Assembly (NCBI GenBank): GCA_965371625.1
Contig: CBDUZE010000002.1
Coordinates: 177,668-241,667 of the forward strand
Reading direction: 5' to 3'
DNA: 64,000 bases
From: an uncultured Alphaproteobacteria bacterium
Lineage (GTDB): Bacteria; Pseudomonadota; Alphaproteobacteria; CBDUZE01
Shown: positions 30,349-60,700 of the stretch, piece by piece
Position numbering within the stretch: position 1 is the stretch's first letter
How the letters are laid out: each line of letters begins with the position of its first letter
Position numbers and translations under genes: made by a program
The notes under the pieces: generated by a model
What the model saw: only the letters and a program-made list of their open reading frames with translations
The model's database searches: none
What the model was told of the DNA's origin: nothing

Positions 30349-31179
30349 ATGGCGGCAACACCCGGGTTGCGCGAGCTCCTCGAATGGTACCTCGAGGCCG
30401 GCGCCGACGAGGCCATCGGCGAGGCCCCGCGCGACCGCTACCGCGAGACGCCGGCGGCGGCCCCGGCGGAGGCGAGGAGGGCCTCGCCTGAACCCTCGCC
30501 ATCACGAGCCGCGGCGCAGCCCCCCGCGGCCAGAGCGGCGCCGCGCCGACCCGCCGGCGACCTCTTGGCAATGGCCTCGCCGCATTCGGCGGCGCAGAGC
30601 GCCGGCGAGCTCGCCGCCGCCTGCGGCACGCTCGACGAGCTGGCCGAGGTGGTGCGGAACTTCGAGGGCCTGGCGCTCAGGGAAACCGCCACCAACCTGG
30701 TCTTCGGCGACGGCAACCCGGAGGCCCAGGTGATGATCGTCGGCGAGGCGCCGGGCGCCGACGAGGATCGCCAGGGGCTGCCCTTCGTCGGCGTCTCGGG
30801 CCAGCTCCTCGACCGCATGCTGGCCGCCATCGGCCTCGACCGCCGCCACGTCTACATCACCAACATGCTGCACTGGCGGCCGCCCGGCAACCGCAAGCCG
30901 ACCACCGCCGAGATCACCGCCTCACTGCCCTTCATCGAGCGTCAGATCGAGCTGGTGGCGCCGCAAATCCTGGTGCCGGTGGGGGGCACCGCGGCAAGCA
31001 CGCTGCTCGGCACCTCGCAAGGCATCACCAAGCTGCGCGGGCGCTGGTGCTTCTATCGGCGGCCGGGCGTCGAGATCCCGGCGCTCCCGACCTATCACCC
31101 GGCCTTCCTTTTGCGCCAGCCGGCCCTAAAGCGAGACTCCTGGCATGATCTGCTGGAGATAAAAACCAAGCTAAGTTAA
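30349..31179 (+). CDS. Uracil-DNA glycosylase, family 4
   Basis: '[30 protein letters not shown]' (GEAPG motif) and 'HPAFLLRQP'. N-terminal Pro/Ala-rich extension. Confidence 0.8.
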
Positions 31180-33840: not shown

Positions 33841-35376
33841 ATGACCGATCCGTTCATCTTGCGCCCGGGCGAGTTGACGCTCGGCGACCTGCGCCGACTC
33901 GACGATCCCGGACTCGCCGTGGTCCTCGACGAGGGCTGCGGCGCGGCGATCGCGGCGGCCCACGACGCCATCACCCGGGCGATCGCCGAGGAACGGCGCA
34001 TCTACGGCGTCAACACCGGCTTCGGCAGCCTCGCCGACACCCTGATCCCCGAGGACCAGATGCGCGAGCTGCAGCGCCGGCTGGTGTTGTCGAACGCGGT
34101 GGGAAGCGGCCCGTTGCTGCCCGACCGCGTGGTGCGGCGCATCGTGGTGCTCAAGGCCAACGCCCTGGCGCGGGCCCATTCGGGGGTCCGCCCGCGCCTC
34201 GTGGAGGCCCTGCTCGAGCTCTACAACGCCGGCCTCCAGCCTTGCATTCCGGGCAAGGGCTCGGTCGGCGCCTCGGGCGATCTGGCGCCCCTCGCCCACC
34301 TCGCGGCGGCGCTCATCGGGGTCGGCGAGATGCGCGTCGACGGCGAAGTGGCGCCGGCCGCCGAGGCGCTGGCCCGCGCCGGCCTCGAGCCCGTGGAGCT
34401 GGCGCCCAAGGAGGGGCTTTCGATGCTCAACGGCACCGAGGTCTCGACGGCGCTGGCGCTCGACGGCCTGTTCGCGCTCGAGGCGGTGTTCGCCGCCGCC
34501 CTGGTCGCCGGCGCGCTCAGCGTCGAGGCGGCGCTGGGCAGCGAGATCGCCTTCGCCGCCCCGATTCACGAGATCCGCGGTCAAGCGGGCGAGATCGAGG
34601 TCGCCGCGGTCTTGCGCCGGCTCCTGGCGGGAAGCGAGTTGCGCGTCCGCGCCGGCGAGAAGGGCCGCCTGCAGGACCCCTACAGCCTGCGCTGCCAGCC
34701 CCAGGTCATGGGCGCCTGCCTCGACAGCCTGCGCTTCGCCGCCGAGGTGCTGCTCCGCGAGGCCAACGCGGTGGGCGACAACCCGCTGGTCTTCGCCGAG
34801 GGCGGCGAGATCCTCTATGGCGGCAACTTCCACGGCGCCCCGGTGGCCATGGCGGCGGACCTGCTGGCGCTGGTGATCGCCCAGGTGAGCGGGCTCGCCG
34901 AGCGTCGCGTCGCCCTCCTGACCGACGCCAACATGAGCGGCCTGCCGCCCTTCCTGGTGGAGGGCAGCGGCCTCAACTCGGGCTTCATGGCGGCGCAGAT
35001 CGCGGCCGCGGCCCTGGCCAGCGAGACCAAGGCCCTGGCCCATCCCGGCAGCGCCGACAGCATCCCCACCGTGGCCAACTTCGAGGACTACGTCAGCATG
35101 GCCACCTACGCCTCGCGCCGGCTTTCGGAGATGGCCGAGAACGCCGCCACCGTGGTCGGGATCGAGCTCATGGCCGCGGCCCAGGGGTTCGGCTTCCACC
35201 GCCCGCTCACCACCAGCCCGGAGCTCGAGGCGGCGCTCGAGGCGCTCGCGGCGCGCGTCCCCCGCTTCACCGAGGACCGCTTCATGGCGCCCGAGATCGA
35301 GGCCATCAAGGAGCTGGTGCGGAGCGGCCACTTCCTGAGCTACCTGCCGCCCGGGCTCCTGCCCAGCGCCGCCTGA
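33841..35376 (+). CDS. MIO-dependent aromatic-amino-acid/histidine ammonia-lyase
   Basis: 'GSVGASGDLAPLAHLA' is the Ala-Ser-Gly MIO motif. 511 aa. No other hut genes nearby, so substrate (His vs Tyr/Phe) is unresolved. Confidence 0.85.
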   Translation: MTDPFILRPGELTLGDLRRLDDPGLAVVLDEGCGAAIAAAHDAITRAIAEERRIYGVNTGFGSLADTLIPEDQMRELQRRLVLSNAVGSGPLLPDRVVRRIVVLKANALARAHSGVRPRLVEALLELYNAGLQPCIPGKGSVGASGDLAPLAHLAAALIGVGEMRVDGEVAPAAEALARAGLEPVELAPKEGLSMLNGTEVSTALALDGLFALEAVFAAALVAGALSVEAALGSEIAFAAPIHEIRGQAGEIEVAAVLRRLLAGSELRVRAGEKGRLQDPYSLRCQPQVMGACLDSLRFAAEVLLREANAVGDNPLVFAEGGEILYGGNFHGAPVAMAADLLALVIAQVSGLAERRVALLTDANMSGLPPFLVEGSGLNSGFMAAQIAAAALASETKALAHPGSADSIPTVANFEDYVSMATYASRRLSEMAENAATVVGIELMAAAQGFGFHRPLTTSPELEAALEALAARVPRFTEDRFMAPEIEAIKELVRSGHFLSYLPPGLLPSAA

Positions 35377-35987
35377 CCGCGCCCGGCCCCGATCAGGCGC
35401 CAGCGGGCGTAGTCGGCGGCGTTGTCGACGTCGCTCAAGCGCTCGACGAAGGCCACCGAGAAGCGCGGCCCCAGGTTGGCCAGGGTGTCCTCGAGGGCGT
35501 GGACGCTCGACCAGCGCACGGCGCGAAAGAGGTCGGCGGGCGGCGGCGGGCGGCGCCGCGCCCCCACCAGCCAGTAGCCGCCGTCCTCGGCGGGGCCGAA
35601 CACCAGGTCGTGGCGGCCGAGCGCGGCGAAGGCCCGAGCGACGTGGCCGGCGCCCAGGCCCGGGATGTCGCTGCCGACGATGACCACCGGCCCCGGCGGC
35701 AGGATCTTGAGCGGCCGGGCCATGCGCTGGCCGAGGTCGCCCGGGCCCTGGGGCAGGCGGGGCAGACGCCTGGGCCAGAAGGCGCTCGCCGCGGCGAAGC
35801 GGTCGGGCGTGACGGCGAGCCAGCAGCGCCAACGCGGGTCATGCCCCAGGCGCGCCAGCACCGTGGTCGAGGTGGCGCGGTAGAAGCGCCGCGCCGCCAC
35901 CGCGCCGATCTCGCGCGCCAGCCGGCTCTTGACGGCGCCGAGGCGCGGCGCCTTCACCATCACCACCAGGTGGTTGACCAGGCCCAT
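35340..35987 (-). CDS. TIGR04282/DUF2064-family glycosyltransferase-like protein
   Basis: ATG 'MGLVNHLVVMVKAPRLGAVKSRLAREIG' at 35987. 'GSDIPGLG' and 'GPAEDGGYWLVG' motifs. Typically partnered with the upstream TIGR04283 GT2. Confidence 0.65.
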   Translation of the reverse strand: MGLVNHLVVMVKAPRLGAVKSRLAREIGAVAARRFYRATSTTVLARLGHDPRWRCWLAVTPDRFAAASAFWPRRLPRLPQGPGDLGQRMARPLKILPPGPVVIVGSDIPGLGAGHVARAFAALGRHDLVFGPAEDGGYWLVGARRRPPPPADLFRAVRWSSVHALEDTLANLGPRFSVAFVERLSDVDNAADYARWRLIGAGRGQAALGRSPGGR

Positions 35988-35995
35988 CGCCGGGC

Positions 35996-36682
35996 TCAGC
36001 CGTAGAGCCGCACCAGCAGCCGTGGCGGCACGCCGATGAAGTAAAGCCCCAGGCAGGCCAGGTTGCGGAGGCTGCGGCGCAGGTAGCCGGCGCGGCGGTA
36101 GCGCGCGGCCGAGGTGAGGGCGGCGGCCTCGAGCACGACCAGTCGCCTGGCGCCGATGCGGCGCACGATGTCCACGTCCTCCATCAGCGGCAGCGGCCGG
36201 AAGCCGCCGACACGCTTGTAGAGATCGCGATGGATCAGGAGGCCCTGGTCGCCATAAGGAAGCCCCAGCACCCGGCAGCGCCAGGCCACCAGCGCCTCGA
36301 GGCGGCGCGCCGCCACGTCCTCGTCGACGACGACGAAGCGAAAGACGGCGGCGCGCTGCGCGCTCCCGGCCGCGGCCATGAAGCTCCGCGCGGCCGCCTC
36401 CCAGCCCGCCTCGAGCGCGGTATCGGCGTGGAGGAACAACAACCACGGGCTGCTGGCCGCCTCGGCGCCGGCCGCGAGCTGGGAACCCCGCCCCCGCGCC
36501 GCCACGACCAGCCGCGCGCCGCCGCCCGCGGCGACGCTCGGGGTTGCGTCGCTCGAGCCGCCGTCGGCCACCACCACCTCGGCGACGAGGCCCGCGCGGC
36601 GCGCCGCCGCGAGCGCCGCGAGCGCGCGGCGAAGCTCGCCCGCCGCCTGATAGGCCGGGATCACCACGCTCACCTGGGCCAC
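35996..36682 (-). CDS. Glycosyltransferase family 2 (TIGR04283-like)
   Basis: 'VSVVIPAYQAAGELRRALAAL...VVADGGSSD...PYGDQGLLIHRDLY'. 8-bp gap to the DUF2064 gene. Confidence 0.7.
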   Translation of the reverse strand: MAQVSVVIPAYQAAGELRRALAALAAARRAGLVAEVVVADGGSSDATPSVAAGGGARLVVAARGRGSQLAAGAEAASSPWLLFLHADTALEAGWEAAARSFMAAAGSAQRAAVFRFVVVDEDVAARRLEALVAWRCRVLGLPYGDQGLLIHRDLYKRVGGFRPLPLMEDVDIVRRIGARRLVVLEAAALTSAARYRRAGYLRRSLRNLACLGLYFIGVPPRLLVRLYG

Positions 36683-36783
36683 CGCCCGACACCACCCGAT
36701 CGCTTGAACATTCCCCGATCATAGAGCAGATCGCCGGGGCCGCGGAGCAGCGGCTGCTTCTCGGGTCCCGCGCATGATCAAAT

Positions 36784-36807
36784 GTTCTTGTTTTGTTCGC
36801 TTCGTTC
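36784..36807 (+). promoter_or_regulatory. Alphaproteobacterial LexA/SOS box (GTTC-N7-GTTC) upstream of the radical SAM gene
   Basis: 'GTTCttgttttGTTCgcttcGTTC'. The first two half-sites sit at the exact N7 spacing. 16 bp upstream of the 36823 start codon. Confidence 0.5.
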
Positions 36808-36822
36808 TGCTAGCTTCGCCCC

Positions 36823-37914
36823 ATGGTCGATCTCGCGGCAAATCTGGCCGAGCCGGCGGCGCAACACGGGCGCGGCGCGCTCTCCAACGCCAGCGGGCGT
36901 TTCGAGCGCCTGAGCCGGGAACTCATCGACGACGGCTGGGAGCGGCCGGAGCCGGAAGCGCCGCGGCTGCGCACCACGGTGAGCCTCGACGCGAGCCGCA
37001 GCGTCATCGCCCACAACGACTCGCCCGACCTCGGCTTCGATCGCTCGATCAACCCCTACCGGGGCTGCGAGCACGGCTGCATCTACTGCTTCGCCCGGCC
37101 CAGCCACGCTTATCTGGGGCTCTCGCCGGGGCTCGACTTCGAGAGCCGCCTGTTCGTCAAGGCCGACGCCGCGCGGCTCCTCGAGGCCGAGCTCGCCCGG
37201 CCCGGTTATCGGCCGGCCCCGATCGCGCTCGGCACCAACACCGACCCCTACCAGCCGATCGAGCGGGAGTGGCGGGTGACCCGGGGGGTGCTGCAGGTGC
37301 TCGCCGCCCACGGCCATCCCGCGACCATCGTCACCAAGTCGGACCTGGTGACCCGCGACATCGACGTGCTCGCGCCGATGGCGGCCCAGGGGCTGGTCAA
37401 GGTGGCGCTCTCGGTCACCACCCTCGACGGACGACTGGCGCGCCGCATGGAGCCCCGGGCACCAAGGCCCAAGCGGCGGCTCGAGGCGATGCGCGCCTTG
37501 AGCCGGGCCGGGATCCCCACCGGGGTCATGGTGGCGCCGCTGATCCCGGCCCTCAACGATCCCGAGATCGAGGCCATCCTCGAGGCCGCGGCCGAGGCCG
37601 GGGCGCGGGAGGCGGGCTACATCCTGTTGCGCCTGCCCCACGAGATAAAGCATCTGTTCCGCGAGTGGCTCGATCAGCACGCGCCCCACCGCGCGGCGCG
37701 CATCATGCGCCTGGTGCGCGAGATGCGGGGCGGCCGCGACTATGACGCCACCTTCCATGAGCGCATGACCGGGACCGGGCGCTACGCCGAGCTGATCAAG
37801 CGGCGCTTCGACCTGGGGTGCCGGCGCTTCGGCCTCAACCGGGATCCGGCGCGGCTCGAGAGCCGCCGCTTCCGCGCCCCTCAGGCGGCGGAGGACCAGC
37901 TCGCGTTGTTCTAG
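36823..37914 (+). CDS. Radical SAM protein, PA0069 family
   Basis: 'CEHGCIYCFARPSHAY' CxxxCxxC motif. 363 aa. A family commonly found in LexA regulons. Confidence 0.8.
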   Translation: MVDLAANLAEPAAQHGRGALSNASGRFERLSRELIDDGWERPEPEAPRLRTTVSLDASRSVIAHNDSPDLGFDRSINPYRGCEHGCIYCFARPSHAYLGLSPGLDFESRLFVKADAARLLEAELARPGYRPAPIALGTNTDPYQPIEREWRVTRGVLQVLAAHGHPATIVTKSDLVTRDIDVLAPMAAQGLVKVALSVTTLDGRLARRMEPRAPRPKRRLEAMRALSRAGIPTGVMVAPLIPALNDPEIEAILEAAAEAGAREAGYILLRLPHEIKHLFREWLDQHAPHRAARIMRLVREMRGGRDYDATFHERMTGTGRYAELIKRRFDLGCRRFGLNRDPARLESRRFRAPQAAEDQLALF

Positions 37915-39081
37915 GGTGGCGCCCGCTCGAGGTCGCAACCCGCGCCATCTCCCAACTCGCGATCACGGCCTGTTGCACCCATCTCAGGGGCATGCAGGAA
38001 CGGTGCAACTAGGTATCCAAACCCCACCAGACGAACAAATTCGCGGCGCGCCGGAGCCCCCTGATGGGGTGCCGCGCGCTTTTCACAAGCGCCGCCGGCC
38101 AACGCGAGAACGGATTATCGCAACCAATAGTCGGTACACATCAATGACTTCGACAAATCTTGGTCGGGCGAAAACGTGTCGGCGTTGGTGGAAAACCAAG
38201 CTGGGAAAAGCAAGAACTACGGTTGATTAGGCACCCAGAGAGGTATAGTATGCGTTCTTCGATCTAAATGCGGGAAAGTATCTTCTAGGTACTTTATGGT
38301 GATTGCGGCCTCACTCCCATTTTGTACAAATTCGGCTTAAGAATCAACATCTTGCAGCCGTGTTGCGAGCGAGGCAAGGGGATACCTGGAGGCTCAATTG
38401 AGTTAGGTCGCCTATCCAGACCGATTTTGATCGGCACCTTATGGTGAGTCTCTGAGCATAGAAGTCACCGCGGATGCCAGCCTGGTGGCTGTTGTGACCC
38501 AGACGAGACGCTCGGATTGACCGACATGTCCCAATCGATGCTTTTGGGGGTGTGGCACACGAGAGACTGTAGGTATACGAACTGGCGTCCGTTTCGGCAC
38601 TCGGTCATTGGTTCTCTAGCCGGACGCCAGGACATCACTGACCCTGGCCGCTTTTCGCTCCTTCTGGTAACCGCGAGCCGCCCGTCAAACACTGGCGAGG
38701 CATTGCAATCAGGATTGGACCATAGAGGGAAGGTGTGGATCAGAACCCTCCGCGACGCAATCAGGATCGATTGGCATTTGACCGACCTGGTTCCCGGGCT
38801 TTGTTCGATAGCCAGAGACCAAATTGCGCATCGTTTATCACGTCTTGTTTCACGCCTGCTACAGGGTCAACCGCGCGCCCAATTCCCGGACCGCGGCTGT
38901 GGCATCATCATTTCCGGATTACCGGACAGGTCGAGAGGCTTGACGACGCGGCAGAAAATCCCTCCTGGGGCGCGAGCCAATCACTATGGCCATCACTCGC
39001 AGCTTCTTCTCACTTCATAGTGACCACGGTGGAAACAACTGGGTAACGTCGACTTTAGATCGGGAAGCAAAGGAGCACAAG

Positions 39082-39936
39082 ATGTGTACATTTTTGAAAT
39101 TTCTGCTTCTGAGTGTGAGTCTTCTGGTATACGCGGCCTATATCCCCGGGGCGCTCAGTCAAGACCCCAGTTTTGTAATGAAACGTGCGGTAAAGTATTT
39201 CGACGATACCGCCGTGCCGCAAATCATAGGAGGTACGATTGCAGATCCATCGGACTGGCCGGCAACGTTTGTATTTATTAGTCCTCAGGGTGGCGGCTGT
39301 ACGAGCACTGCAATTGGCCCAAAGGTAATCTTGACAGCAGCTCATTGCATTGGCGATAACGCTAAGGGTATTGTGGAACTGAATGGACGCACGGTGGCAG
39401 CTGCATGCTATCATCATCCTGATTACCACAACAACGTGTCGGACACTGATCCGAAATGGTCCGAAAAGGTATCTCCAGACTTTGCACTTTGTATAACTGA
39501 CGACCAGCTTGCAGGGTTAGATTTCGAGAACATCGATAAGGAGGGAACCGAGCTCAAGCTTGGGCAGACTATCCAACTTGTTGGTTTTGGATGCAATGCA
39601 ATCGGCGGAACGGACAACGGGTTTGGCGTTCTATATGAAGGCAATTCCGCCGTCCAGAGCCTGCCCACGCCACCGAGCTACTATACGATAACACTCGGTG
39701 GTGCGGCTGTCTGTTATGGAGATAGTGGCGGTGGAGCGTACGTACTCTTAAATCCACCGGCAAAGGCACGTCGGGTTTTGATGGGTGTGGCCTCTCGCGG
39801 CAACATCTCCACAAGATCCTTGCTCTCGACAACTAGCTTGTCTGGCTTTATTTCTTGGGCTGATTCCTTAGCCGGGCGACACAACACGAAGATATGCGGG
39901 ATAGATACCGGTGTTCCAGGGTGCAGATCGATGTAG
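39082..39936 (+). CDS. Secreted trypsin-like serine protease (S1 family)
   Basis: RBS 'aaggag' then ATG. Signal peptide 'MCTFLKFLLLSVSLLVYAAYIPGALS'. Propeptide then 'IIGG'. Catalytic triad 'LTAAHC', Asp, 'GDSGG'. GC ~48%. Confidence 0.8.
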   Translation: MCTFLKFLLLSVSLLVYAAYIPGALSQDPSFVMKRAVKYFDDTAVPQIIGGTIADPSDWPATFVFISPQGGGCTSTAIGPKVILTAAHCIGDNAKGIVELNGRTVAAACYHHPDYHNNVSDTDPKWSEKVSPDFALCITDDQLAGLDFENIDKEGTELKLGQTIQLVGFGCNAIGGTDNGFGVLYEGNSAVQSLPTPPSYYTITLGGAAVCYGDSGGGAYVLLNPPAKARRVLMGVASRGNISTRSLLSTTSLSGFISWADSLAGRHNTKICGIDTGVPGCRSM

Positions 39937-40010
39937 GACCCGATTTACCTTCACCCTAGAAATCATAAGACCAATTGTGATGTCCCCGGCATAATGAGGA
40001 GTGTATCGGC

Positions 40011-42113
40011 ATGCTGAGATTTGGGAATAGATTGACCATAATAGTAATTACCTTTTGTCTTACAGCGTCCACAAGTTCGCGCGGTGACATGGTTACCTTA
40101 TTCGTTGTTAGCTCCGCGATAACAAAAGACGTCGTCGAATATGTGGCAAGAATCGGCAAGCCCCAACGCATACACGTGAAGAAGGGTCAGAGATTTTCGG
40201 ATATTTTGAGAGCGCGATGCGGTCGCCTCAATAACAACTTCATTAATTTATTGAGAACGTCATCGGCGACAGAATTGGGAAAATTGTTGAATTTGGATTT
40301 TGCGTATGAAAGAGATCAATTTATAGAACTCCCTGCGTGTTTGAGTTTGCCACAATATACGGCCACAGAGAGAATAGTTGAAGAAGATGACAGCCCTTGG
40401 GATTATTTTTCCAATGACTCTGCAGGATTTATGTATTTTGAGACTCCATCGCCAATGGTGAAACGGATTGTGGCTACAGCGGCAGATGCTCCGACCACCT
40501 TTATGGACGCCTTTGGGCACTTGAATCCCGGCTTCACATCCTCGGGTATCATTCACGAAGGAGAAGTGGTTCAAGTACCAAAAACACCGGCTGTTTGGTC
40601 ATCTCTGCAAATTCGGCCCGATATCGCAGCGTTTCTCGAGCCGGTCTCAGATGTCCTTGCTCGGCTCTTGATGGAAGGAGGACAAACCCGAGAAACTGCA
40701 CTTATTGAGAGACCAGAAGAAATCATTCTGTATGCACCTCTAACTAATGCGCAGCTGGTTGAGTTTAAATCTTGTCAGGCATCACAGACCTCAACAAATC
40801 TTGACTATGCCTTTGACCCAATGGAGTTAACGAAAGTTATCACCGTCAACAAAAGGTTCCTCCAAGAAGAGCGGCGGTCGACCCCAGATAGGACGACAAT
40901 AGTGATCCCGGATACTGGTCTCTATACCCATGGGAGGACACCATTTCATAACGGACGCTTGATACTGGTCGATCGGTATAGTCCTAGCGATCCCTACGCG
41001 AGCATTCGTCCTTCATCCAAATACCCGTATCGTCATCACGGCACCTACGTAGCTTCAGTAGCCCTGGGGGGCGCGAGCTTTCTGCAGGCATTCGATGTCA
41101 TGGGAGTGGATATTAAGATTGCGCCTATTAATATAATCGAAGAAAAAGAAAGGATATGCTGGCGTTCAAATGCGGCTGCATACAGTTGCCCTTACCATCG
41201 CGTAAAGACGGAGGCTTTCAACAATGCAATGGCAAGTGCCGAGACTCACAATGCCATTCTCAATCTTAGCGTAGGGCGCCTAACACGATTTATCGGCCTT
41301 GAAAAATATCTGAATAAGGATAGTAGTATATTGTTCGTTGTGGCTGCTGGAAACGCCGGCCAGTCACTTTCGAAAAGAAAGACCTATCCGTCACGGTATG
41401 GCGGGAGCAATAATGATGGGAAGTACAATCTGATATCGGTGGCTGCGCTGGACTTAGACGGCTCGAGAGCTGGTTTTTCAAATTATGGAAGCGAATACGT
41501 TGACATCGCGGCACCAGGTTGTCGTCAGCGCGTGTTTGAATACAATGATGAGTCACGTAGCTTCAGCTTCCAGAGGAAATCGGGCACATCATTTGCAGCG
41601 CCGTTGGTCTCGTTTACTGCAGCATTGATCAAGTCCTTTTGGTTGGGCGCGTCGCCGCGTAAAATCAAACACCGCATTATCACAGCTTCGGATATTTCCG
41701 AAGAACTCTGGGGGAAGGGCGAAGTGGCCGGTGGGCGCATGCTAAATGTTGTGAAAGCGGTTTCTTTGTATCAAGACATAGTAGAAGCTAGAGCTGATGG
41801 AGAATCCAGACTTATTCGGGGTGAGATAGATTCAAATCATCGGATTTTCGAGTTTTGTGATGGGAGACTCACGCTTTACCGAAAGGATAACCCAGGGCGC
41901 CCGCAAATAAAGAAAATTACACCTATTGCAGACCCGACATCTCAGGAGCCGAGAATTCTGGTTTACTGGACCAATGTTGAGGGTGTATTGAGGCCTGAGA
42001 TATGCGCGCAACAAGAAATTACCATAAAGATAACAGAGGATTTTACCGGGCGGGTATACGAGTTACCGACAGATAGTATAATCGACGTTGTTTTTTCGGA
42101 GCGGTTGAACTAG
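40011..42113 (+). CDS. Secreted subtilisin-like serine protease (S8 family) with N- and C-terminal extra domains
   Basis: RBS 'gaggag'. Signal peptide 'MLRFGNRLTIIVITFCLTAS'. Catalytic 'VIPDTGL' (Asp), 'HGTYVASVALGG' (His), 'GTSFAAPLVS' (Ser). GC ~45%. Confidence 0.85.
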   Translation: MLRFGNRLTIIVITFCLTASTSSRGDMVTLFVVSSAITKDVVEYVARIGKPQRIHVKKGQRFSDILRARCGRLNNNFINLLRTSSATELGKLLNLDFAYERDQFIELPACLSLPQYTATERIVEEDDSPWDYFSNDSAGFMYFETPSPMVKRIVATAADAPTTFMDAFGHLNPGFTSSGIIHEGEVVQVPKTPAVWSSLQIRPDIAAFLEPVSDVLARLLMEGGQTRETALIERPEEIILYAPLTNAQLVEFKSCQASQTSTNLDYAFDPMELTKVITVNKRFLQEERRSTPDRTTIVIPDTGLYTHGRTPFHNGRLILVDRYSPSDPYASIRPSSKYPYRHHGTYVASVALGGASFLQAFDVMGVDIKIAPINIIEEKERICWRSNAAAYSCPYHRVKTEAFNNAMASAETHNAILNLSVGRLTRFIGLEKYLNKDSSILFVVAAGNAGQSLSKRKTYPSRYGGSNNDGKYNLISVAALDLDGSRAGFSNYGSEYVDIAAPGCRQRVFEYNDESRSFSFQRKSGTSFAAPLVSFTAALIKSFWLGASPRKIKHRIITASDISEELWGKGEVAGGRMLNVVKAVSLYQDIVEARADGESRLIRGEIDSNHRIFEFCDGRLTLYRKDNPGRPQIKKITPIADPTSQEPRILVYWTNVEGVLRPEICAQQEITIKITEDFTGRVYELPTDSIIDVVFSERLN

Positions 42114-42202
42114 CGACGGCTACCAGAGATTCCTGGCCGGAGCGGTATTTCACTGCGGGGCCAAGTCGTGGAACAATGCTTCATTGGCCCGGCTACCGTG
42201 GC

Positions 42203-44431: not shown

Positions 44432-45553
<1,122 letters not shown>

Positions 45554-46477: not shown

Positions 46478-47488
46478 CTACTCGCATTCCCTGATCGACA
46501 ACCCTTCCGGCAGCACCGTATCGCGATCACCGCAGGCTGTGTCGAGCTGATCCTGGACCAACCCCCTTGCCAGCTTGAGGTTGGCGCCGCGCAGGTCGGC
46601 ATTTCCAAGCACCGTAGCGGTGAGAATAGACCTTGCGAGGTTCGCGTCCTTCAAGACAGCGTTCCTCAAGTCGGCTCCTTCAAGGTTTGCTCTCCCCAGA
46701 TTGGACTTCGTCAGATTGGCGTCACGTAACACGGCTTGCTGTAGATTCGCTCGTTCCAGGTTTGCTGATTCCAGATGAGCACCTTGCAGCTGAGCGTTGC
46801 TCAGATCAGCTCTTTTCAGCTTGGCGCGGCGCAAGTCAACGCCGGTCATTATTGCTCCTCGCAGGATCGCCCTTTCCAATTCAGCAAATTCAAGGGTAGC
46901 TTTCGCGAGGTTGGCTTCGCTCAAGTCAGCCTCTTTCAGGTCCGCTCCATTCATTTTGCAGCCCGTGAGTATGGCGCGCACCAGGTTGGCTTTCTGCAGG
47001 TCCACTCGGCTCAAGTTGACTCGCTTGAGATCCGTGCCACTCAAGTCGGCTTTCTCCAGGTCGGCCCCACTCAACTTGGCCCCTCGCATTTTCGCCCCAC
47101 GCATGTTGGCCTTTTCCAATATGGCCCCGCGCAGATCAGCACCCCCGAGCATGGCCCCTGCGAGGTTCGCCTTCGACAGATCCGCCCCGTTCAAGTTCGC
47201 GGAGCTCAGCATGGCGCGACTGAGGTTTGCGCCATGAAGATCGGCCCGTGCCAAGTTGGCCGAATTCAGGATGGCCCGACTCAGATCGGCGCCTTTCAGG
47301 CTGGCGTTCTGGAGATCGGCGCGCGCCAGATCGGCTCCTTTAAGGTCGCAATTCGGGCATTCTCTCGTCGCCCTTAGCACGTCCACGCTCTTCTTATCGA
47401 AGGCGTGGCCATTGACGAACGGTACAAGCACAGTCGCTACGGCGATAGACGCAATCGTCAGCGTCTTCAGTCGTAGTTTTCTGGTCAT
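46478..47488 (-). CDS. Secreted pentapeptide-repeat protein (copy A)
   Basis: ATG 'MTRKLRLKTLTIASIAVATVLVPFVNGHA' signal peptide. Then about 50 A(D/N)LxxA(N/D)L pentapeptide repeats. C-terminal 'CGDRDTVLPEGLSIRECE'. Confidence 0.8.
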   Translation of the reverse strand: MTRKLRLKTLTIASIAVATVLVPFVNGHAFDKKSVDVLRATRECPNCDLKGADLARADLQNASLKGADLSRAILNSANLARADLHGANLSRAMLSSANLNGADLSKANLAGAMLGGADLRGAILEKANMRGAKMRGAKLSGADLEKADLSGTDLKRVNLSRVDLQKANLVRAILTGCKMNGADLKEADLSEANLAKATLEFAELERAILRGAIMTGVDLRRAKLKRADLSNAQLQGAHLESANLERANLQQAVLRDANLTKSNLGRANLEGADLRNAVLKDANLARSILTATVLGNADLRGANLKLARGLVQDQLDTACGDRDTVLPEGLSIRECE

Positions 47489-47697
47489 CACAGGTTCCTT
47501 CTCAAGTTCCAATCTGCTGAAAAGCCCCTCCTTTGTCACTGATTTGGGTGATACGTTTCCTTATCAAACCCTCCATCCGCATCCGACATTTGCGCCAATT
47601 GCCGTGCTCATGCTATCTCCGCTGGGCCAGTGGGCCGCCGAGAGCGAAGAGCATACCGTGGCCGAGTTGCCGCCGCGCGGCATCACTGCTCGGCGCG
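46478..47697. repeat. Segmental duplication copy A (about 1.22 kb, ~93% identical to 49091-50307)
   Basis: Identity starts exactly at the PRP stop codon and extends ~210 bp upstream of the PRP start. Small indels in the 5' flank. Confidence 0.85.
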
Positions 47698-48287
47698 TCC
47701 TTCTCCTCAATTCGCCCATCAATCAATGATAGACATGGCGCCAGAAATGACAATCAGGATGTCCCCTTAATGTTCTACGTGAATCCCCTTAGCCAAGATC
47801 GCCCAGATGGCTTCTCCCGGCTGCCGACGGCGATAGCACAACGGACGTTCGTGCCACAACTCCCACACTAACCAGCACGGTAGGTCACGATCCTCCCTCT
47901 ACCTGGCTGACTGAGTTGGCGATGGGAAACCCCGCCAAACCGTCAACTCAGGCGCCAAGGGCACGCCTCGCCTTGGGGCGGCCTTGTTTCGGTACCGGGA
48001 ACCTTGAGATTGGCGCACCCCGTTCTCGGGACACAATTCATCGGCGCGCCTGAAGGCGTGGAGCGATGCGTCTCCGCCCTCTTGTTGGCTCGTCGAGCCG
48101 GCGCTGAATTTTCGGTTCTTCTCTCTAGAAAAAAGGAGCGACCCGGACGCCGCCCCTTAACTTTGCGCCGTTAAGCTTGCGGTCGGCCGCTGAGCGTTAC
48201 TTCATCTTCGCCGCGCGATTGGCCAATTTAAGAGCCTCTTGAAGCATTTGCTCCGCTCTTTCGGAATTATGGAGACCCATGCTGCGA

Positions 48288-49090: not shown

Positions 49091-50101
49091 CTACTCGCAT
49101 TCCCTGATCGACAACCCCTCCGGCAGCACCGTATCGCGATCACCGCAGGCTGTGTCGAGCTGATCCTGGACCAACCCCCTTGCCAGCTTGAGGTTGGCGC
49201 CGCGCAGGTCGGCATTTCCAAGCACCGTAGCGGTGAGAATAGACCTTGCGAGGTTCGCGTCCTTCAAGACAGCGTTCCTCAAGTCGGCTCCTTCAAGGTT
49301 TGCTCTTCCCAGATTGGACTTCGTCAGATTGGCGTCACGTAACACGGCATGCTGTAGATTCGCTCGTTCCAGGTTTGCTGATTCCAGATTCGACCGGTTC
49401 AAGTGAGCGTTGCTCAGATCAGCTCTTTTCAGCTTGGCGCGGCTCAAGTTAACGTCGGTCATTATTGTTCCTCGCAGGATCGCCCTTTCCAATTCAGCAA
49501 ATTCAAGGATGGCTTTCGCGAGGTTGGCTTCGCTCAAGTCAGCCTCTTTCAGGTCCGCTCCACTCATTTTGCAGCCCGTGAGTATGGCGCCCTTCAGGTT
49601 GGCTTTCTGCAGGTCCACTCGGCTCAAGTTGACTCGCTTGAGGTCCGTGCCACTCAAGTCGGCTTTCTCCAGGTCGGCCCCGCTCAACTTGGCCCCTCGC
49701 ATTTTCGCCCCACGCATGTTGGCCTTTTCCAAAATGGCCCCGCGCAGGTCAGCACCCCCGAGCATGGCCCCTGCGAGGTTCGCCTTCGACAGATCCGCCC
49801 CGTTCAAGTTCGCGGAGCTCAGCATGGCGCGACTGAGGTCCGCTCCATGAAGATCGGCCCACCCCAAGTTGGCCGAATTCAGGATGGCCCGACTCAGATC
49901 GGCACCTTTCAGATTGGCATTCCGGAGATCAGCGCGCGCGAGATCGGCTCCTTTCAGGTCACAACCCGGGCATTCTCTCGACGCCCTTAGCACGTCCATA
50001 CTCTTCTGCTCGAAAGCGTGACCATTGACGAATGGTCCAAGCACAGCCGCTACGGTTATAGACGCAATCGTCAGCGCCTTCAGTCGTAGTTTGCTGGTCA
50101 T
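49091..50101 (-). CDS. Secreted pentapeptide-repeat protein (copy B)
   Basis: 336 aa, a near-identical paralog of 46478..47488 with the same signal peptide and repeat array. Confidence 0.8.
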   Translation of the reverse strand: MTSKLRLKALTIASITVAAVLGPFVNGHAFEQKSMDVLRASRECPGCDLKGADLARADLRNANLKGADLSRAILNSANLGWADLHGADLSRAMLSSANLNGADLSKANLAGAMLGGADLRGAILEKANMRGAKMRGAKLSGADLEKADLSGTDLKRVNLSRVDLQKANLKGAILTGCKMSGADLKEADLSEANLAKAILEFAELERAILRGTIMTDVNLSRAKLKRADLSNAHLNRSNLESANLERANLQHAVLRDANLTKSNLGRANLEGADLRNAVLKDANLARSILTATVLGNADLRGANLKLARGLVQDQLDTACGDRDTVLPEGLSIRECE

Positions 50102-50307
50102 CACAGGCTCCTTCTCAAGTTCTAATCCGCTGAAAAGCCTCTCTTTTGTCACTGATTTGGGTGATACGTTTCCTTATCAAACCCTCCATTCGTATCCGGA
50201 ACTCGTGCCAATTGCTGTGCTCGTGCCATCTCCGCCGGGCGAGTGCACCGCTGAGAGCGGAGAGCATACTGTGGCCGAGTTGCGCCGCGCGGCATCACTG
50301 CTCGGCG
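49091..50307. repeat. Segmental duplication copy B
   Basis: See copy A. Confidence 0.85.
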
Positions 50308-54110: not shown

Positions 54111-55229
54111 TCACCCGGCGGCGGCCCGCTTCTGCCGCGCGGCGGCGCGTTCGCTGGCGAGCAATGCCTCCTTGCGCTCGAGGCCCCAGCGATAACCGCC
54201 GAGACCGCCGTCCTCGCGCAGCGCGCGGTGGCAGGGCACGATGAGCGAGACCGGGTTGGTGGCGCAGGCCCGGCCCACGGCGCGCTGGGCCTTGGGTTTG
54301 CCGAGGCGGGCGGCGATCTCGCCGTAGCTCCGGGTCTCGCCCAGGGGGATGCGCTTGAGCTCCTCCCAGACCCGCCACTGGAAGGCGGTGGCGCGCACGT
54401 CGAGCGGGAGGTCGAGGCGCGGCTCGGCGCCCGCCAGGTAGCCGACCAGCGCCGCGCTCCAGCGCCCCAGGCCACGGTCGTCGCGGCGGATCTCGGCGGC
54501 CGGGTATTCCTGGGCGAGCTCGCCCTCGAGCTCGGCATCGTCGTCGCCGAGATAGACCGCGCAGACGCCGCGCTCGGTGGCGCCGACCAAGAGCCGGCCG
54601 AGCGAGGAGGCGACGACGCTGTAGCGGATGCGGGCGCCGCGTCCGCCCTTGGCGTAGGTCGCCGGGGTCATGCCGAGCTGCGTCGGCGCGCGCTCGTAAA
54701 GCCGGCTCGAGGAGCCGTAGCCGGCCTCGTAGAGCGCCCCCGTCACCGGCTCGCCGCGGCGCAGACCGGCCTTGAGCCGGCCCAAACGGCGGGCGTCGGC
54801 GTACTGGCGCGGGGTGATGCCCATGACGCGCTTGAAGGTGCGCTGCAGATGGTAGGGGCTGAGGCCGGCGTGGCTCGAGAGCTCGGCCAGCGTCGGCGGC
54901 CCGCCGTCGCCATTGCCGGCACCCTGGCCAGCGCCCTGGCCATCGATGTACCGGCACACCCGGCGCACCATGTCGAGGTGGGGATCGCCGGCCTCGGCGT
55001 CGCCGGGGCGGCAGCGGCGGCAGGCGCGGTAGCCGGCCTGCTCGGCGGCCTCGGGCACGGCGAAGAAGTGGACGTTCTCGCGCCGCGGCCGGCGGCTCGG
55101 GCACGACGGCCGGCAGTAGATGCCGGTCGAGCTTACGGCGTAAACGAAGCTGCCGTCGAAACCGGCATCGCGGCTCTCGACGGCGTGCCAGTGCTCATTC
55201 ACGGTCATGGTCGTTGTCTCCGGTGGCAT
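54111..55229 (-). CDS. ada: Bifunctional Ada: N-terminal Zn methylphosphotriester domain/AraC-type HTH plus O6-methylguanine-DNA methyltransferase
   Basis: 'YCRPSCPSRRPRR...CRRCRP' Ada N-terminal Cys4 domain. HTH 'LAELSSHAGLSPYHLQRTFK'. C-terminal 'LIVPCHRAL' Ogt active site. The start is possibly at 55208 ('MTVNEHWH'). Confidence 0.85.
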   Translation of the reverse strand: MPPETTTMTVNEHWHAVESRDAGFDGSFVYAVSSTGIYCRPSCPSRRPRRENVHFFAVPEAAEQAGYRACRRCRPGDAEAGDPHLDMVRRVCRYIDGQGAGQGAGNGDGGPPTLAELSSHAGLSPYHLQRTFKRVMGITPRQYADARRLGRLKAGLRRGEPVTGALYEAGYGSSSRLYERAPTQLGMTPATYAKGGRGARIRYSVVASSLGRLLVGATERGVCAVYLGDDDAELEGELAQEYPAAEIRRDDRGLGRWSAALVGYLAGAEPRLDLPLDVRATAFQWRVWEELKRIPLGETRSYGEIAARLGKPKAQRAVGRACATNPVSLIVPCHRALREDGGLGGYRWGLERKEALLASERAAARQKRAAAG

Positions 55230-55271
55230 GATCTCGATCCCCGGTGTTAGAGCACGGGCGCGGGCGCCATT

Positions 55272-56384
55272 CTATCCGAAGCTTGCGCCCGAATCCTCCC
55301 CGGGCGCCGCGCCCCGGGCGTGGCGGATCACCTTCTTCATCAGGGTCGGCAGCGCCAGCGCCTCCAAACGCCCTAAGGGATGCCAGCGGGCGCCGTCGGG
55401 GGGCGCGGCCTCAGCCTCCGCCGCCCACCCCGTCATCACCATGAGCTCGAGGTGAAAGTGGCTGAAGGTGTGGCCCACCGAGCCCTCGACGAGGCGCCAG
55501 TCGGCGGCGAGCGGGGCCAGCGCCCGGGCCTCGGCGGCGTGCCACGCCCGCGCCCGCCACGGCGTCGAGGGCACCTCGGTCATGCCGCCCAACAAGCCGC
55601 GCTCGGGGCGCCGCCGCACCAACAGCTCGCCCGCTCCCGGAAGCGCGCGTTTGAGCGCCACGAAGGCGACGCCGTGGCGCCTCGGCCGCGCCGCCTTGGG
55701 GGCTCGCCTGGGCAGGCGCTCGGGCCGGCCCCGGGCGCGGGCGACGCAGGCCGCGGCCCAGGGACAGCGACCGCACGCGGGCTTGCGCGGCAGACAGATC
55801 GTGGCGCCGAGCTCCATCACCGCCTGGGCGTAGTCGCCGGCGCGCTCCGCGGGCGTGAGCCGCGCCGCCAGCTCCTTGAGCCGGGGCTTCGCCGCCGGCA
55901 GCGGCTCGGCGACGCCAAAGAGGCGCGCCATCACCCGCTCGACGTTGCCGTCCACCACCACCGCTCGGCGCTCGAAGGCGATGGCCGCGATGGCGGCCGC
56001 GGTGTAGGGCCCGATACCGGGCAGCGCGCGAAGCTCCGCCTCGTCCTCGGGAAAGCGCCCGCCCAGGCGCTCGCTGAGCTCTCGGGCGCAGCGCACGAGG
56101 TTGCGCGCGCGGGCGTAGTAGCCGAGCCCCTGCCAGGCATGGAGCACCTCCTCGAGCGGCGCCTTGCTGAGCGCGCCGAGGCTGGGCCAGCGGCCGACGA
56201 AGTCGTGGAAGTAGGGAACCACCGTGGCCGCGGTGGTCTGCTGCAACATGACCTCGCTGAGCCACACCCGGTAGGGGTCGGGGCGGGTCCCCGGCGAGGC
56301 CCGCCAGGGCAGCTTTCGGCGCTGGCGGTCGTACCAGGCCAGCAGCTCGGAAGGCCGCGGATCTCGCCTCGCCGTCTTGGACAT
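55272..56384 (-). CDS. mutY: A/G-specific adenine DNA glycosylase
   Basis: 'VMLQQTTAATVVPYFHDFVGRWPSL...WQGLGYYARARNL' HhH-GPD motif. Four-Cys cluster 'CLPRKPACGRCPWAAAC'. C-terminal NUDIX-like domain. Confidence 0.85.
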   Translation of the reverse strand: MSKTARRDPRPSELLAWYDRQRRKLPWRASPGTRPDPYRVWLSEVMLQQTTAATVVPYFHDFVGRWPSLGALSKAPLEEVLHAWQGLGYYARARNLVRCARELSERLGGRFPEDEAELRALPGIGPYTAAAIAAIAFERRAVVVDGNVERVMARLFGVAEPLPAAKPRLKELAARLTPAERAGDYAQAVMELGATICLPRKPACGRCPWAAACVARARGRPERLPRRAPKAARPRRHGVAFVALKRALPGAGELLVRRRPERGLLGGMTEVPSTPWRARAWHAAEARALAPLAADWRLVEGSVGHTFSHFHLELMVMTGWAAEAEAAPPDGARWHPLGRLEALALPTLMKKVIRHARGAAPGEDSGASFG

Positions 56385-56454
56385 TTCCTGTCACCCGAGG
56401 GGACGATTAGCTATATCATGGACGCGCCGCGATCGGACCTTCTGTGGGCGAGGG

Positions 56455-56958
56455 ATGAGCATGCAGACGAGGCCGCAGGCCAGGGGACCAAGGCGCTTGG
56501 CGGCGGCGCTCTCGAAGGCGACCCGCGCCACCTTCCGCCGCCGCGGCTTCGCCCACGCCGGGGTCTTGAGCCGCTGGCCGGAGATCGTCGGCGACGAGCT
56601 CGCCACCATGAGCTGCCCGGAGAAGCTCAGCTTCCCGCCCGGGCGCGGCGACGGCGGGACCCTGCAGGTGCGCGTGGCGGGCGGCTTCGCCACCGAGCTC
56701 CAACATCTCGAGCCGCTGGTGATCGAGCGCATCAACACCTTCTTCGGCTACGCGGCGGTCGGCCGCCTGGCGCTGAAGCAGGGACCGTTGCCGGCGCGGC
56801 GCCAGGTACGCAGGCCCGGGCGGGCGCTGGGCCGGGCCGAGGAAGAGGCGCTCGGCGCGCGCGTCGCCGGCACCGCGGATCAGGGCCTCAAGTCGGCGCT
56901 GCTCGATCTCGGCCGCCGCATCGCCGCCCGCCTGCCCGCCGCGGAGCGGAGGGGATGA
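56455..56958 (+). CDS. DUF721-family protein
   Basis: ATG 'MSMQTRPQARGPRRLAAALSKATRATFRRRGFAHAGVLSRWPEIVGDELATMSCPEKL'. Conserved mutY-DUF721-dsbA-smc neighbourhood in Alphaproteobacteria. The track ORF begins with a TTG at 56377. Confidence 0.55.
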   Translation: MSMQTRPQARGPRRLAAALSKATRATFRRRGFAHAGVLSRWPEIVGDELATMSCPEKLSFPPGRGDGGTLQVRVAGGFATELQHLEPLVIERINTFFGYAAVGRLALKQGPLPARRQVRRPGRALGRAEEEALGARVAGTADQGLKSALLDLGRRIAARLPAAERRG

Positions 56959-57032
56959 GCGCTGGCGCCGGCGGCCGGGCTCGGGGGAGGGCCGTGACAG
57001 GGGCCGAGATTGGGGCCGGCGCGGCGGCGTCC

Positions 57033-57061
57033 TTGAGCCCCGCCGATCGACAGCCTATACT
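57033..57061 (+). promoter_or_regulatory. Putative sigma70-type promoter (TTGAGC-17-TATACT) for the dsbA-smc transcription unit
   Basis: Exact 17-bp spacer. Followed by RBS 'aggagg' 57075-57080 and GTG at 57086. Confidence 0.4.
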
Positions 57062-57085
57062 AGATCTTGTGGTTAGGAGGATACG

Positions 57086-57709
57086 GTGACACTAAAGAGA
57101 AGGGATTTTCTTGCCTTCGCCCTCGGCGTCGCACCCTTCGCCGGGGCCTTCCCTTGGCGCTCTTCCGCGGCCTGGGCCGAAGCCTACGCCACCGGCGACA
57201 TGGCGCTCGGTTCGCCGGACGCGCCGGTCACGGTGATCGAGTACGCCTCAATGACCTGTCCCCACTGCGCCTACTTCCATGAGGAGAGCTTCCCCGACCT
57301 CAAGTCCAAGTACATCGAGACCGGCAAGGTACGCTTCATCTATCGCGAGTTTCCCCTCGACGGGGCGGCCCTGCGCGCCTCGATGCTGGCCCGTTGCGCC
57401 GGCGAGAAGCGCTTCTTCGCCTTCATAGAGGTGCTGTTCCGCGAGCAAGACCGCTGGCGGCTCTCGCCCGACCCGATCGGGGCGCTGGCCAAGCTCGGCC
57501 GCGTCGGCGGCATCGGAAGGAAGGACTTCGAGGCCTGCATGAACAACAAGGCGCTGGGCGACAGCATCCTCTCGACGCGGCTTGTCGGCAGCCAGAAGTT
57601 CGACGTCCAATCGACGCCCACCTTCATCATCAACGGCAAGAAGCACCCGGGCGCGCTCAGCATCGATCAACTCGCCCGCATCATCGACCCCCTGGTGGGC
57701 CAGGACTAG
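57086..57709 (+). CDS. DsbA-family thiol:disulfide oxidoreductase with Tat-type signal
   Basis: 'RRDFLAF' twin-arginine motif. Active site 'MTCPHCAYFH' (CPHC). C-terminal 'TPTFIINGK'. Confidence 0.8.
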   Translation: MTLKRRDFLAFALGVAPFAGAFPWRSSAAWAEAYATGDMALGSPDAPVTVIEYASMTCPHCAYFHEESFPDLKSKYIETGKVRFIYREFPLDGAALRASMLARCAGEKRFFAFIEVLFREQDRWRLSPDPIGALAKLGRVGGIGRKDFEACMNNKALGDSILSTRLVGSQKFDVQSTPTFIINGKKHPGALSIDQLARIIDPLVGQD

Positions 57710-57736
57710 GGCCAAGACGAACGACGGACCGCGCCG

Positions 57737-60700
57737 GTGCAATTCACCCGTTTGCGCCTCTCGGGCTTCAAGTCCTTCGTCGAGGCCACCGAGCTCCACA
57801 TCGAGCCTGGTTTGACCGGCTTGGTGGGCCCCAACGGCTGCGGCAAATCGAATATCGTCGAGGCGCTGGGCTGGGTCATGGGCGAGACCTCGGCCAAGCG
57901 GATGCGTGGCGAGGGTATGGACGACGTCATCTTCGCCGGTACCGTCGACCGCCCGCCGAGGAACCTGGCCGAGGTCTCGCTCCAGCTCGACAACGCCGAG
58001 CGGCGGGCGCCGGCCCAGTTCAACGAAGCCGAGGTGCTGGAGGTGATCCGCCGCATCGAGCGCGGCAGCGGCTCCGCCTACCGCGTCAACGGCCGCGAGG
58101 TGCGCGCCCGCGACGTCCAGCTGCTGTTCGCCGACGCCACCACCGGCGCCCGTTCGACGGCCCTGGTGAGCCAGGGCCGGGTCGACGCCCTGATCAACGC
58201 CAAGCCGACCGACCGTCGCGCGCTCCTGGAAGAGGCCGCGGGCATCACCGGCCTCCACTCGCGGCGCCACGAGGCCGAGCTCCGTCTGCGCGCGGCGGAC
58301 GTCAACCTGGAGCGCCTCGACGACGTGATGGCGGCCCTCGAGACCCAGCTTCTGGGCCTCAAACGCCAGGCCCGCCAGGCCTCGCGCTATCGCAATATCT
58401 CGGGCCACATCCGGCGCACCGAGGCGACCCTGCTCCATCTCCGCTGGGCCGCGGCCAGGGCCGAGACGCAAGCCGCCCAAGCGCGGCTCAAGGAGGCCGA
58501 GGCGGCGGTCGCCCGGCTCACCGCCGCGGCCGCCCGGGCGTCGAGCGCCGAGGCCGCGTCGGCCGCGCGGCTGCCGGGGCTCAGGGACGAGGAGGCCAGG
58601 TCGGCGGCAGGGCTCCACCGCCTGGCGGTGGCGCGCGAAGGTCTCGAGGCCGAGGAAGAGCGGGTGCGCGCCGACCAACGCCAATTGCAGGCACGCCTCG
58701 ATCAGATCGCCGAGGACACGGCCCGCGAGCAGGAGCTGGCGGCGGACGCGGCGGGAGCGCTGGCACGGCTCGAGGAGGAGACGGTCCGGCTCGAGGCAGC
58801 GCGAGGCGACGAAGAGACCGCCCGTGTCGCGGCCGGGGAGCGGCTCGACAAGGCGCGCGCGGCGCTCGGCGACCACGAGGGCGAGCTTCAAGCACTGACC
58901 GAGAAGGTCGCCGCCTCTGGCGCCCGGCGTCAAAGCCTCGGCCAGCGGATCAGCGATCTCGGCGAGCGCATCGCCGAGCTATATGGGCGTGCCCAGACCG
59001 CGGCGGCGGAGCGCGAGGGGCTCGAGGGAGCGAGCGGCGGCGACGACAGCGGCGCCGATGAGGAGGCCCTTGCGGCGGCCAAGGGGCGCGCCGGGACGGC
59101 CCGCGAGGCCGCTCGAGAAGCCGAGCAGGAGCGCGAGCGCGGCCAGGATCTGGAAGGCGAAGCGCGCGAGCGGCTCAAGGGCGCCGAGGAGGAGGTGGCC
59201 AAGCTCCGCGCCGAACGGGACGCGCTGGTCGCCCTCCTCGCGGTCAACGAGGACGACATGTGGCCGCCCCTGATCGACGCGGTGCGGGTCGAGGGCGGCT
59301 ATGAGCGCGCCCTCGGCGCGGCGCTCGGCGACGACCTTTCGTTTCCCGCCGACGAAGCCGCACCGGTGCACTGGAAGGTGCTCGAGGAAGACGACGAGGC
59401 CCCGGCCCTGCCCTCGGGCGCCGAAGCCCTGAGCCGCTTCGTCACGGCGCCGGCGGCGCTTACGCGACGCCTCGCGCAGATCGGCGTGGTGGCCGACGGC
59501 GAGGGGCCGAAGCTGGCGCTCGGGCTCAAGCAGGGACAGCGCCTGGTGACCCGTTCGGGGGCGCTGTGGCGCTGGGACGGCTACACGGTCTCGGCCGGCG
59601 CGCCGACCGCAACCGCGACCCGTCTCGGCCAGCGCAACCGGCTCGACGAGCTGCGCCAAGCGCTGGGGCCGGCGGAGAAGCGCGCCAACAAGGCCCGGGA
59701 CCAGTTCGACGCCGCCCACCAAGCCGCCCTGGCCGCGGTCGAACAGGATAGGGCGGCGCGCGCCGCCCTGGCGCAAGCCGACGACTCGCTACGCGCCACC
59801 GGCGAGGCCCGGGCCGAGGCGATCCAGCGCGCGGCCGCCGCCGCGAGCCGGCGCGCCGCCCTCGAAGCGACCGCGGAGCGCCTCACCGCCGAGCTCCAAG
59901 ATGCCGAGCGCCAGCGCGCCGAGGCCGCGGCGGCGGTGGCGGCGCTGCCCGGAGAGGACGCCGACCGCCATGCCCTCGCCGAGCTCCGCGAGACGGTCTC
60001 CGGCCTGCGCGACCGCTTGGGCCAAGCGCAAAGCGTGCACGATCGCCAGGGCGCCGAGGCGGCGGCTCGGGCGGCCAGGCTCGAGGCTGTGGTCGCCGAG
60101 GCGGGCTCGTGGCGGCGCCGCGCCGAGGCCGCCGGGCGCCAGCTCGAGGAACTGTCGAAACGCCACGCCGAGGTCGAGGCGGCGCTCGGCGCGCTTGCCA
60201 CCCGCCCGGGGCAAATCGCCGAGAAGCGCGCCGCCCTCTTCGCCCAGATCGGCAGCGCCGAAAAGGAGCGCGACCGGGCGGCGGATGCGTTGGCCGCCGC
60301 CGAGCGCGAGGTCGCGGATCTCGACAAGACCACCCGCGAGGCGCAGCAGGCGTTGACCGAGGGACGTGAGGACGGCATCAGGCGCGAGGCCGCGGCGAGC
60401 CAGGCCGACGCCCATGAGGCCGAGGTGGTGGCGCGCATCCGCGAGGCGCTCGACTGCGAGCCCGAGCGGACCTTGGAGCTGGCCGAGCTCAAGGATCCCG
60501 ACAACCCGCCCGACCTCGAGTGGGCCGAGACCCGGCTGGCGCGGCTCAAGCGCGAGCGCGACAACATGGGCCCGGTGAACCTGCTGGCCGAGCAGGAGGC
60601 CCTGGAAGTGGGCGAGCAGCTCGAGACCTTGCGCACCGAGCGCGCCGACCTCGAGGGTGCGATCGCCCGGCTGCGCCAGGGCATCAGCGCGCTCAACCGC

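Follow-up and report, generated by a model that had tools for sequence, protein, structure and literature searches.

A probable LexA operator of the alphaproteobacterial type in the predicted core promoter of a PA0069-family radical SAM gene

The locus described here raises the question of whether a short direct repeat in front of a radical SAM gene serves as a LexA operator, and whether the gene can be counted among the SOS genes of its host. The window, by which we mean the whole stretch of DNA analysed, is 64,000 nucleotides long and comes from an uncultured Alphaproteobacteria bacterium. Read directly from the plus strand of the window, the letters at positions 36784–36798 are GTTCTTGTTTTGTTC, i.e., two GTTC half-sites on either side of the spacer ttgtttt. 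This direct repeat, GTTC-N7-GTTC, was assigned as a LexA operator (SOS box) on the basis of its motif, its matrix score, and its conservation. The open reading frame downstream, 36823–37914 on the plus strand (stop codon included), has its first start codon at 36823 and encodes a 363-aa protein of the PA0069 family, recognised by NCBIfam NF033668, Pfam PF04055, and a CxxxCxxC motif. The initial annotation had put the end of the box 25 bp before the ATG (36823–36825). The two are in fact separated by 24 nt, the A of the ATG being the 25th base after the box. The surrounding intergenic region is 140 bp long, with a GC content of ∼0.57–0.58 vs. ∼0.75 around it.

In such a T-rich intergenic stretch, a correctly spaced pair of GTTC tetramers could arise by chance and have no regulatory role. 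Two observations favour a chance match: the GTTC-N7-GTTC core was found once in the 64-kb window where shuffled sequences predict 1.68 occurrences, and the intergenic region is locally AT-richer than its surroundings. Because the core count is at chance level, we turned to full-site matrices and phylogenetic footprinting. An independent matrix was built from 31 Caulobacter crescentus LexA boxes with LexA ChIP-seq peaks (S6 table, PMC12700426); the box of the radical SAM gene itself was deliberately omitted from it. With this matrix the site at 36784–36798 scored 26.6 bits, which is higher than all 31 training boxes (14.7–25.8 bits) and also exceeds the top site of each of 100 shuffled windows (mean 14.4, maximum 23.5 bits). 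A second matrix, derived from the orthologous promoters, gave 33.2 bits for the same site. The original reading of the repeat as the alphaproteobacterial LexA motif is thus well supported, since it outscores every ChIP-backed Caulobacter box. The runner-up in the window reached 14.0 bits with the Caulobacter matrix, and from this distance we conclude that the window holds exactly one credible LexA box. The next-best candidates, at 47761 (14.0 bits) and 47417 (12.5 bits), score lower than any real box and fall inside the range of the shuffled windows, and both were rejected.

Conservation of the site was examined upstream of 80 orthologous loci (55–66% identity), all from one scan of species-representative genomes. 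Nearly all of these loci are labelled Alphaproteobacteria, with Stella, Bradyrhizobium, Rhizobium, Hyphomonas, Tepidicaulis, Caulobacteraceae, and Rhodospirillaceae among them, and the nearest orthologues of the window gene are all alphaproteobacterial. In 65 of the 80 orthologues, the 250 nt in front of the gene contained an exact GTTC-N7-GTTC on the coding strand, and four more carried the one-mismatch variant GTAC-N7-GTTC. The background in the remainder of the same loci amounted to nine matches in 493 kb, which corresponds to an expectation of 0.006 for each upstream region. The loci that carry no box are mostly labelled Gammaproteobacteria or come without upstream sequence. The gammaproteobacterial LexA motif is a palindrome, CTGT-N8-ACAG, and not a direct repeat (PMC4951493).

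Across 64 orthologous sites the spacer was also conserved (TTGnTTT) and a T preceded the box; positions farther outside carried ∼0 bits. Such flat flanks indicate a footprint rather than general similarity between the upstream regions. Three closer relatives (L081–L083, 75–88% identity), which were found by exact-protein look-up, retain AATGTTCTTGnTTTGTTC, a TG-TAG element, and CCATG, and the remaining intergenic sequence diverges. Conservation in orthologous promoters had been set in advance as a test of this site, and the outcome was clearly in its favour. A match without function would not be expected to outscore all of the shuffled windows and all of the real Caulobacter boxes, nor to recur, spacer included, in front of the orthologue in 65 genomes between unconserved flanks. 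The conservation data effectively refute a chance origin of the repeat, which we regard as extremely improbable.

Another GTTC is found at 36804–36807, 5 nt past the end of the box, and had been pointed out as a further half-site. It is present as described, but it is not conserved as a half-site in either comparison. The corresponding positions carry ∼0–0.2 bits in the 64 orthologues, and they vary even among the relatives at 75–88% identity. We therefore rejected the third GTTC as a half-site or as part of a tandem box.

The scan also returned alphaproteobacterial-like PA0069 orthologues in several MAGs with other labels (‘Candidatus Cybelea’, ‘Marinimicrobia’, or ‘Gammaproteobacteria/Rudaea’), namely L001 (DASQHM010000089.1), L010 (CANJEU010000110.1), L047, L050, and L051. 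L001 and L010 additionally have a perfect alpha-type LexA box. These loci suggest mis-binned contigs or mislabelled bins.

A site that was once an operator may persist as a relic, if LexA has been lost from the organism or has changed its specificity and the promoter is now constitutive. The 64-kb window contains no lexA gene, and likewise no lexA, recA, uvrA, or imuA promoter. Exceptions to class-wide LexA motifs are documented after lexA duplication (PMC4951493). On the other hand, the same work reports GTTC-N7-GTTC to be extremely well conserved among Alphaproteobacteria, and the box in the window is perfect, top-scoring, and retained at 75–88% identity while adjacent bases drift. A box of this quality that is maintained in this way argues for ongoing selection and against an altered LexA specificity, and we consider a relic very improbable.

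The position of the box relative to the gene was analysed in the same set of orthologous promoters. A generic sigma-70 and terminator scan of 36600–36900 called no promoter and no terminator, so the −35 and −10 elements were assigned from conservation and from the transcription start site (TSS) known in Caulobacter. The putative −35 element, TTGTTT at 36788–36793 on the plus strand, lies wholly within the operator. Its TTG occupies box positions 5–7 in 53–58 of the 64 orthologous sites. Seventeen nucleotides further downstream is the putative −10 hexamer, TAGCTT at 36811–36816, part of a putative extended −10 element, TGcTAGCTT at 36808–36816 (plus strand). When the orthologous promoters are anchored on the ATG, a T at −12 is found in 30 of 46, an A at −11 in 29 of 46, and a T at −7 in 32 of 46, and TG-TAG is invariant among the relatives at 75–88% identity.

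An in-frame open ATG is found 37–42 nt past the start of the box (mode 39) in 46 of the 64 box-bearing orthologues; in the window this distance is 39 nt. A TAnnnT at −12 to −7 places the A of the ATG at +1, and for this reason we predict that transcription starts at the start codon. The 46 ATG-anchored orthologues show no purine-rich Shine-Dalgarno sequence, and in the window the distance from the box to the ATG leaves no space for a leader or a Shine-Dalgarno sequence. The radical SAM mRNA is accordingly predicted, from the fixed spacing and by analogy with the Caulobacter TSS, to be leaderless and to begin at 36823. The conserved spacing of box, −10 element, and ATG implies a putative leaderless SOS promoter module that is widespread among these genomes. 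The LexA box would overlap the core promoter, itself predicted from conservation, of the gene that it regulates. Rhizobiaceae-type loci (L013, L023, L028, L032, L034, L039, L045, L054, and L062) keep TAGGAAT and have a longer leader instead. The intergenic region and the gene gave no Rfam match to an RNA element at E ≤ 1.

A known counterpart of this promoter is that of C. crescentus CCNA_01391, annotated as ‘Radical SAM superfamily protein’ in a transcription unit of 1083 bp. At CCNA_01391 the ChIP peak of LexA reaches 944 rpm (PMC12700426), and the gene belongs to those that mitomycin C induces earliest and most strongly. The evidence for binding and damage induction in Caulobacter comes from ChIP-seq, RNA-seq, and a reporter. 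Global 5′-RACE assigned it a ‘leaderless primary TSS’ (PMC4287350). Its box, GTTCTTGTTATGTTC, is the same as the box in the window at 14 of 15 positions (T in the window vs. A in Caulobacter at position 10). The gap from box to coding sequence is 24 bp in both, and the genes are of similar length. The published primer for the CCNA_01391 reporter encodes RTGRFES, which fits the N-terminal motif (S/T)GR(F/Y)E of the PA0069 family. From the annotation, the length, the primer-encoded motif, and the promoter geometry we infer that CCNA_01391 is the orthologue of the window gene. By this orthology, LexA would bind the operator in the organism of the window too, and DNA damage would induce the gene. 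The Caulobacter promoter also has an antisense TSS and annotated CtrA and SciP motifs. The Caulobacter endonuclease III gene (CCNA_02355) has an identical box, which is also 24 bp from its coding sequence.

The overlap of operator and promoter allows a further reading, in which the conserved element is the core promoter alone or the site of another regulator such as CtrA or SciP. A −35-like TTG is located inside the box, and part of the conservation may serve RNA polymerase; in addition, the CtrA and SciP motifs are annotated near the CCNA_01391 TSS (PMC4287350). A −35 hexamer, however, leaves the near-universal pair of GTTC at N7 spacing unexplained. Moreover, the Caulobacter site has a LexA ChIP-seq peak and its gene responds strongly and early to mitomycin C, and an identical box is found at other Caulobacter SOS genes of unrelated function. 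A promoter element or a CtrA/SciP site without LexA is, in our estimate, quite improbable.

Given its motif, score, conservation, and box/−10/ATG geometry, the 15-mer at 36784–36798 is very likely a functional alphaproteobacterial-type LexA operator in the core promoter of the radical SAM gene. In the absence of damage, LexA bound as a dimer to the direct repeat would keep RNA polymerase off the embedded −35 element (TTG at 36788–36790). Upon DNA damage, self-cleavage of LexA stimulated by RecA would free the promoter. The derepressed promoter would then yield a leaderless transcript, from which the radical SAM enzyme would be produced during the SOS response.

As an orthologous copy of a characterised SOS promoter and operator, the arrangement in the window is an ordinary instance of an already known circuit. 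With it, the gene can be confidently assigned to the SOS regulon of a high-GC alphaproteobacterium. What we add is modest: the rigid geometry of operator, −35, −10, and ATG recurs in ∼46 diverse alphaproteobacterial genomes, which generalises the leaderless start seen in Caulobacter. The fixed spacing of box, −10 element, and ATG is an added detail and introduces no new principle.

That PA0069-type enzymes are recurrent members of LexA regulons, as initially stated, is borne out by the literature. In P. aeruginosa, PA0069 is listed among 15 genes of the LexA regulon (Cirz et al., 2006, as cited in bioRxiv 10.1101/2022.03.14.484287). That protein belongs to the same family (NF033668 is named after PA0069) and is SOS-induced, although the gammaproteobacterial LexA site is the palindrome CTGT-N8-ACAG vs. 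the direct repeat in the window. A 2012 study predicted that LexA controls the ‘splB’/COG1533 group in Alpha- and Betaproteobacteria (PMC3323433). The group was later proposed as a core SOS component in several phyla, with EMSA support in Verrucomicrobia (PMC4951493), and it appeared again in the LexA regulons of Bacteroidetes, Balneolaeota, and Gram-positive bacteria (PMC8565304, PMC7739468). In these studies the gene appears as one member of the regulon, and it shares both the orthologous group and the regulatory logic with the gene in the window. Mycobacterium tuberculosis Rv2578c, a radical SAM protein of a sister family, is likewise a LexA target, with a LexA ChIP-seq site and RecA dependence. 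The actinobacterial LexA box is GAAC-N4-GTTC. The window gene adds one more example to the pattern of PA0069/COG1533 radical SAM enzymes as core SOS genes.

As for the enzyme itself, its sequence places it in the PA0069 family: NF033668 matches with 529 bits vs. a cut-off of 360 and covers profile positions 2–348 of 348, and PF04055 matches with an E-value of 6.5e-18. The cluster motif CEHGCIYC (C82-x3-C86-x2-C89) is invariant in 35 homologues, and its three cluster ligands are the only invariant cysteines in the 35-sequence alignment. Membership in the Rv2578c family (NF038135) was rejected, with 234 bits vs. a cut-off of 430, in agreement with a sister family. The SPL family was absent among the NCBIfam matches of the protein, and a phmmer search against PDB gave a best E-value of 0.24, to an unrelated protein. 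We then compared structures using an AlphaFold model of medium confidence (mean pLDDT 72.7). The top Foldseek match of this model was spore photoproduct lyase (TM 0.51–0.56, 15–16% identity over ∼305 columns, E-value 4e-6). SplB (PDB 4FHC and 4K9R) is a radical SAM enzyme as well and acts on DNA; the identity between the two is only 15–16%. The modelled fold would fit an enzyme that is a distant relative of SplB. Since the nearest solved fold is that of spore photoproduct lyase, the leading guess for its activity is that it repairs a DNA lesion directly by radical chemistry. The label ‘SplB-like DNA repair’ is a reasonable analogy, to be used without implying family membership. In the literature we found no recently solved function for the PA0069 family.

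Upstream of the box and divergent from the radical SAM gene is a TIGR04283 glycosyltransferase gene (NCBIfam; 35996–36682, minus strand). It is followed by a TIGR04282/DUF2064 gene, and together they form a pair on the minus strand at 35340–36682. The pair is the divergent upstream neighbour in the window and in both syntenic close relatives, and it adjoins the PA0069 radical SAM gene divergently in ∼15–17 of 83 loci from several alphaproteobacterial lineages (L001, L021, L026, L031, L035, L046, L053, L056, L069, L080, L081, L083, and others). NCBIfam names TIGR04283 and TIGR04282 as transferases of arsenosugar biosynthesis; both families were first defined as the partners of another radical SAM enzyme.

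This recurrence raises the possibility of a bidirectional operator that also controls the TIGR04283/TIGR04282 operon, which is compatible with LexA control of the radical SAM gene. If true, the radical SAM enzyme and the two transferases would form one damage-induced pathway, and this would provide a first biochemical approach to the substrate on which PA0069-family enzymes act. Yet the box accompanies the radical SAM gene in most loci, and most loci are without the pair; its orientation and spacing suit the radical SAM promoter. The distance from the box to the start of the glycosyltransferase gene is 101 nt in the window vs. ∼70 nt in L081 and L083, and the Caulobacter SOS list includes no glycosyltransferase or DUF2064 gene. 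Control in both directions is thus unlikely, and we retain the operator as that of the radical SAM gene.

Fragments of ada, mutY, UDG, and ogt were initially said to cluster in the window and had been brought forward in support of a link between the radical SAM gene and the DNA-damage response. The genes are there, but they are intact. A bifunctional ada is located at 54111–55229 (minus strand), and its C-terminal domain is what had been called ogt; mutY follows at 55272–56384 (minus strand). A family-4 UDG gene is located at 30349–31179 (plus strand); the protein matches TIGR00758 with 213 bits vs. 125 and scores below the cut-off of UdgX TIGR03914. The linkage to the box did not hold up: ada, mutY, and UDG are 6–19 kb away from it, and a scan of the whole window with the Caulobacter matrix found no LexA-like site at any of them. 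These repair genes add nothing to the regulatory argument. We also considered an SOS-regulated operon of a radical SAM gene with UDG, of the type of Caulobacter CCNA_02417/02418. This candidate was rejected, as the UDG gene has neither a radical SAM partner nor a LexA-like site.

In the same region (54111–61192), ada and mutY are followed on the plus strand by dciA, a gene for a DsbA-like thioredoxin, and smc. The mutY and dciA genes are divergent, and their predicted open reading frames overlap by 8 nt (56377–56384). With such an overlap, one of the two start codons has probably been called too far upstream.

Several other features of the window were recorded. Just past the stop codon of the radical SAM gene begins a low-GC island (38000–42150; GC 0.41–0.62 vs. 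∼0.72 around it) that encodes a trypsin-like protease (38986–39936, plus strand) and a subtilase S8 protease (40011–42113, plus strand). In the relative L081 (76% identical), RNase HII comes after the radical SAM gene instead. Based on this difference, the island at 38000–42150 was probably inserted by horizontal transfer. No tRNA gene was found in the window.

A CcrM-like N6-adenine methyltransferase with N6_N4_Mtase and RAMA domains is encoded at 44465–45553 (plus strand); it scores 604 bits with NF050803, which is below the 830-bit equivalog cut-off. As a taxonomic hint, a gene of this kind agrees with the alphaproteobacterial origin of the window. Two 353-aa pentapeptide-repeat proteins, 91% identical to each other, are encoded 2.6 kb apart on the minus strand (46478–47539 and 49091–50152). 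The 3′-terminal 300 nt of the two genes are 99% identical, and their GC3 of 0.67 is lower than that of the neighbouring genes. The pair points to duplication or gene conversion in the recent past. Positions 57–23997 make up a large locus for exopolysaccharide or capsule. Its genes include a DegT aminotransferase, several GT4 and GT2 glycosyltransferases, Wzi, a 1059-aa YjbH-family protein, and a 983-aa Wza-like export protein with SLBB domains.
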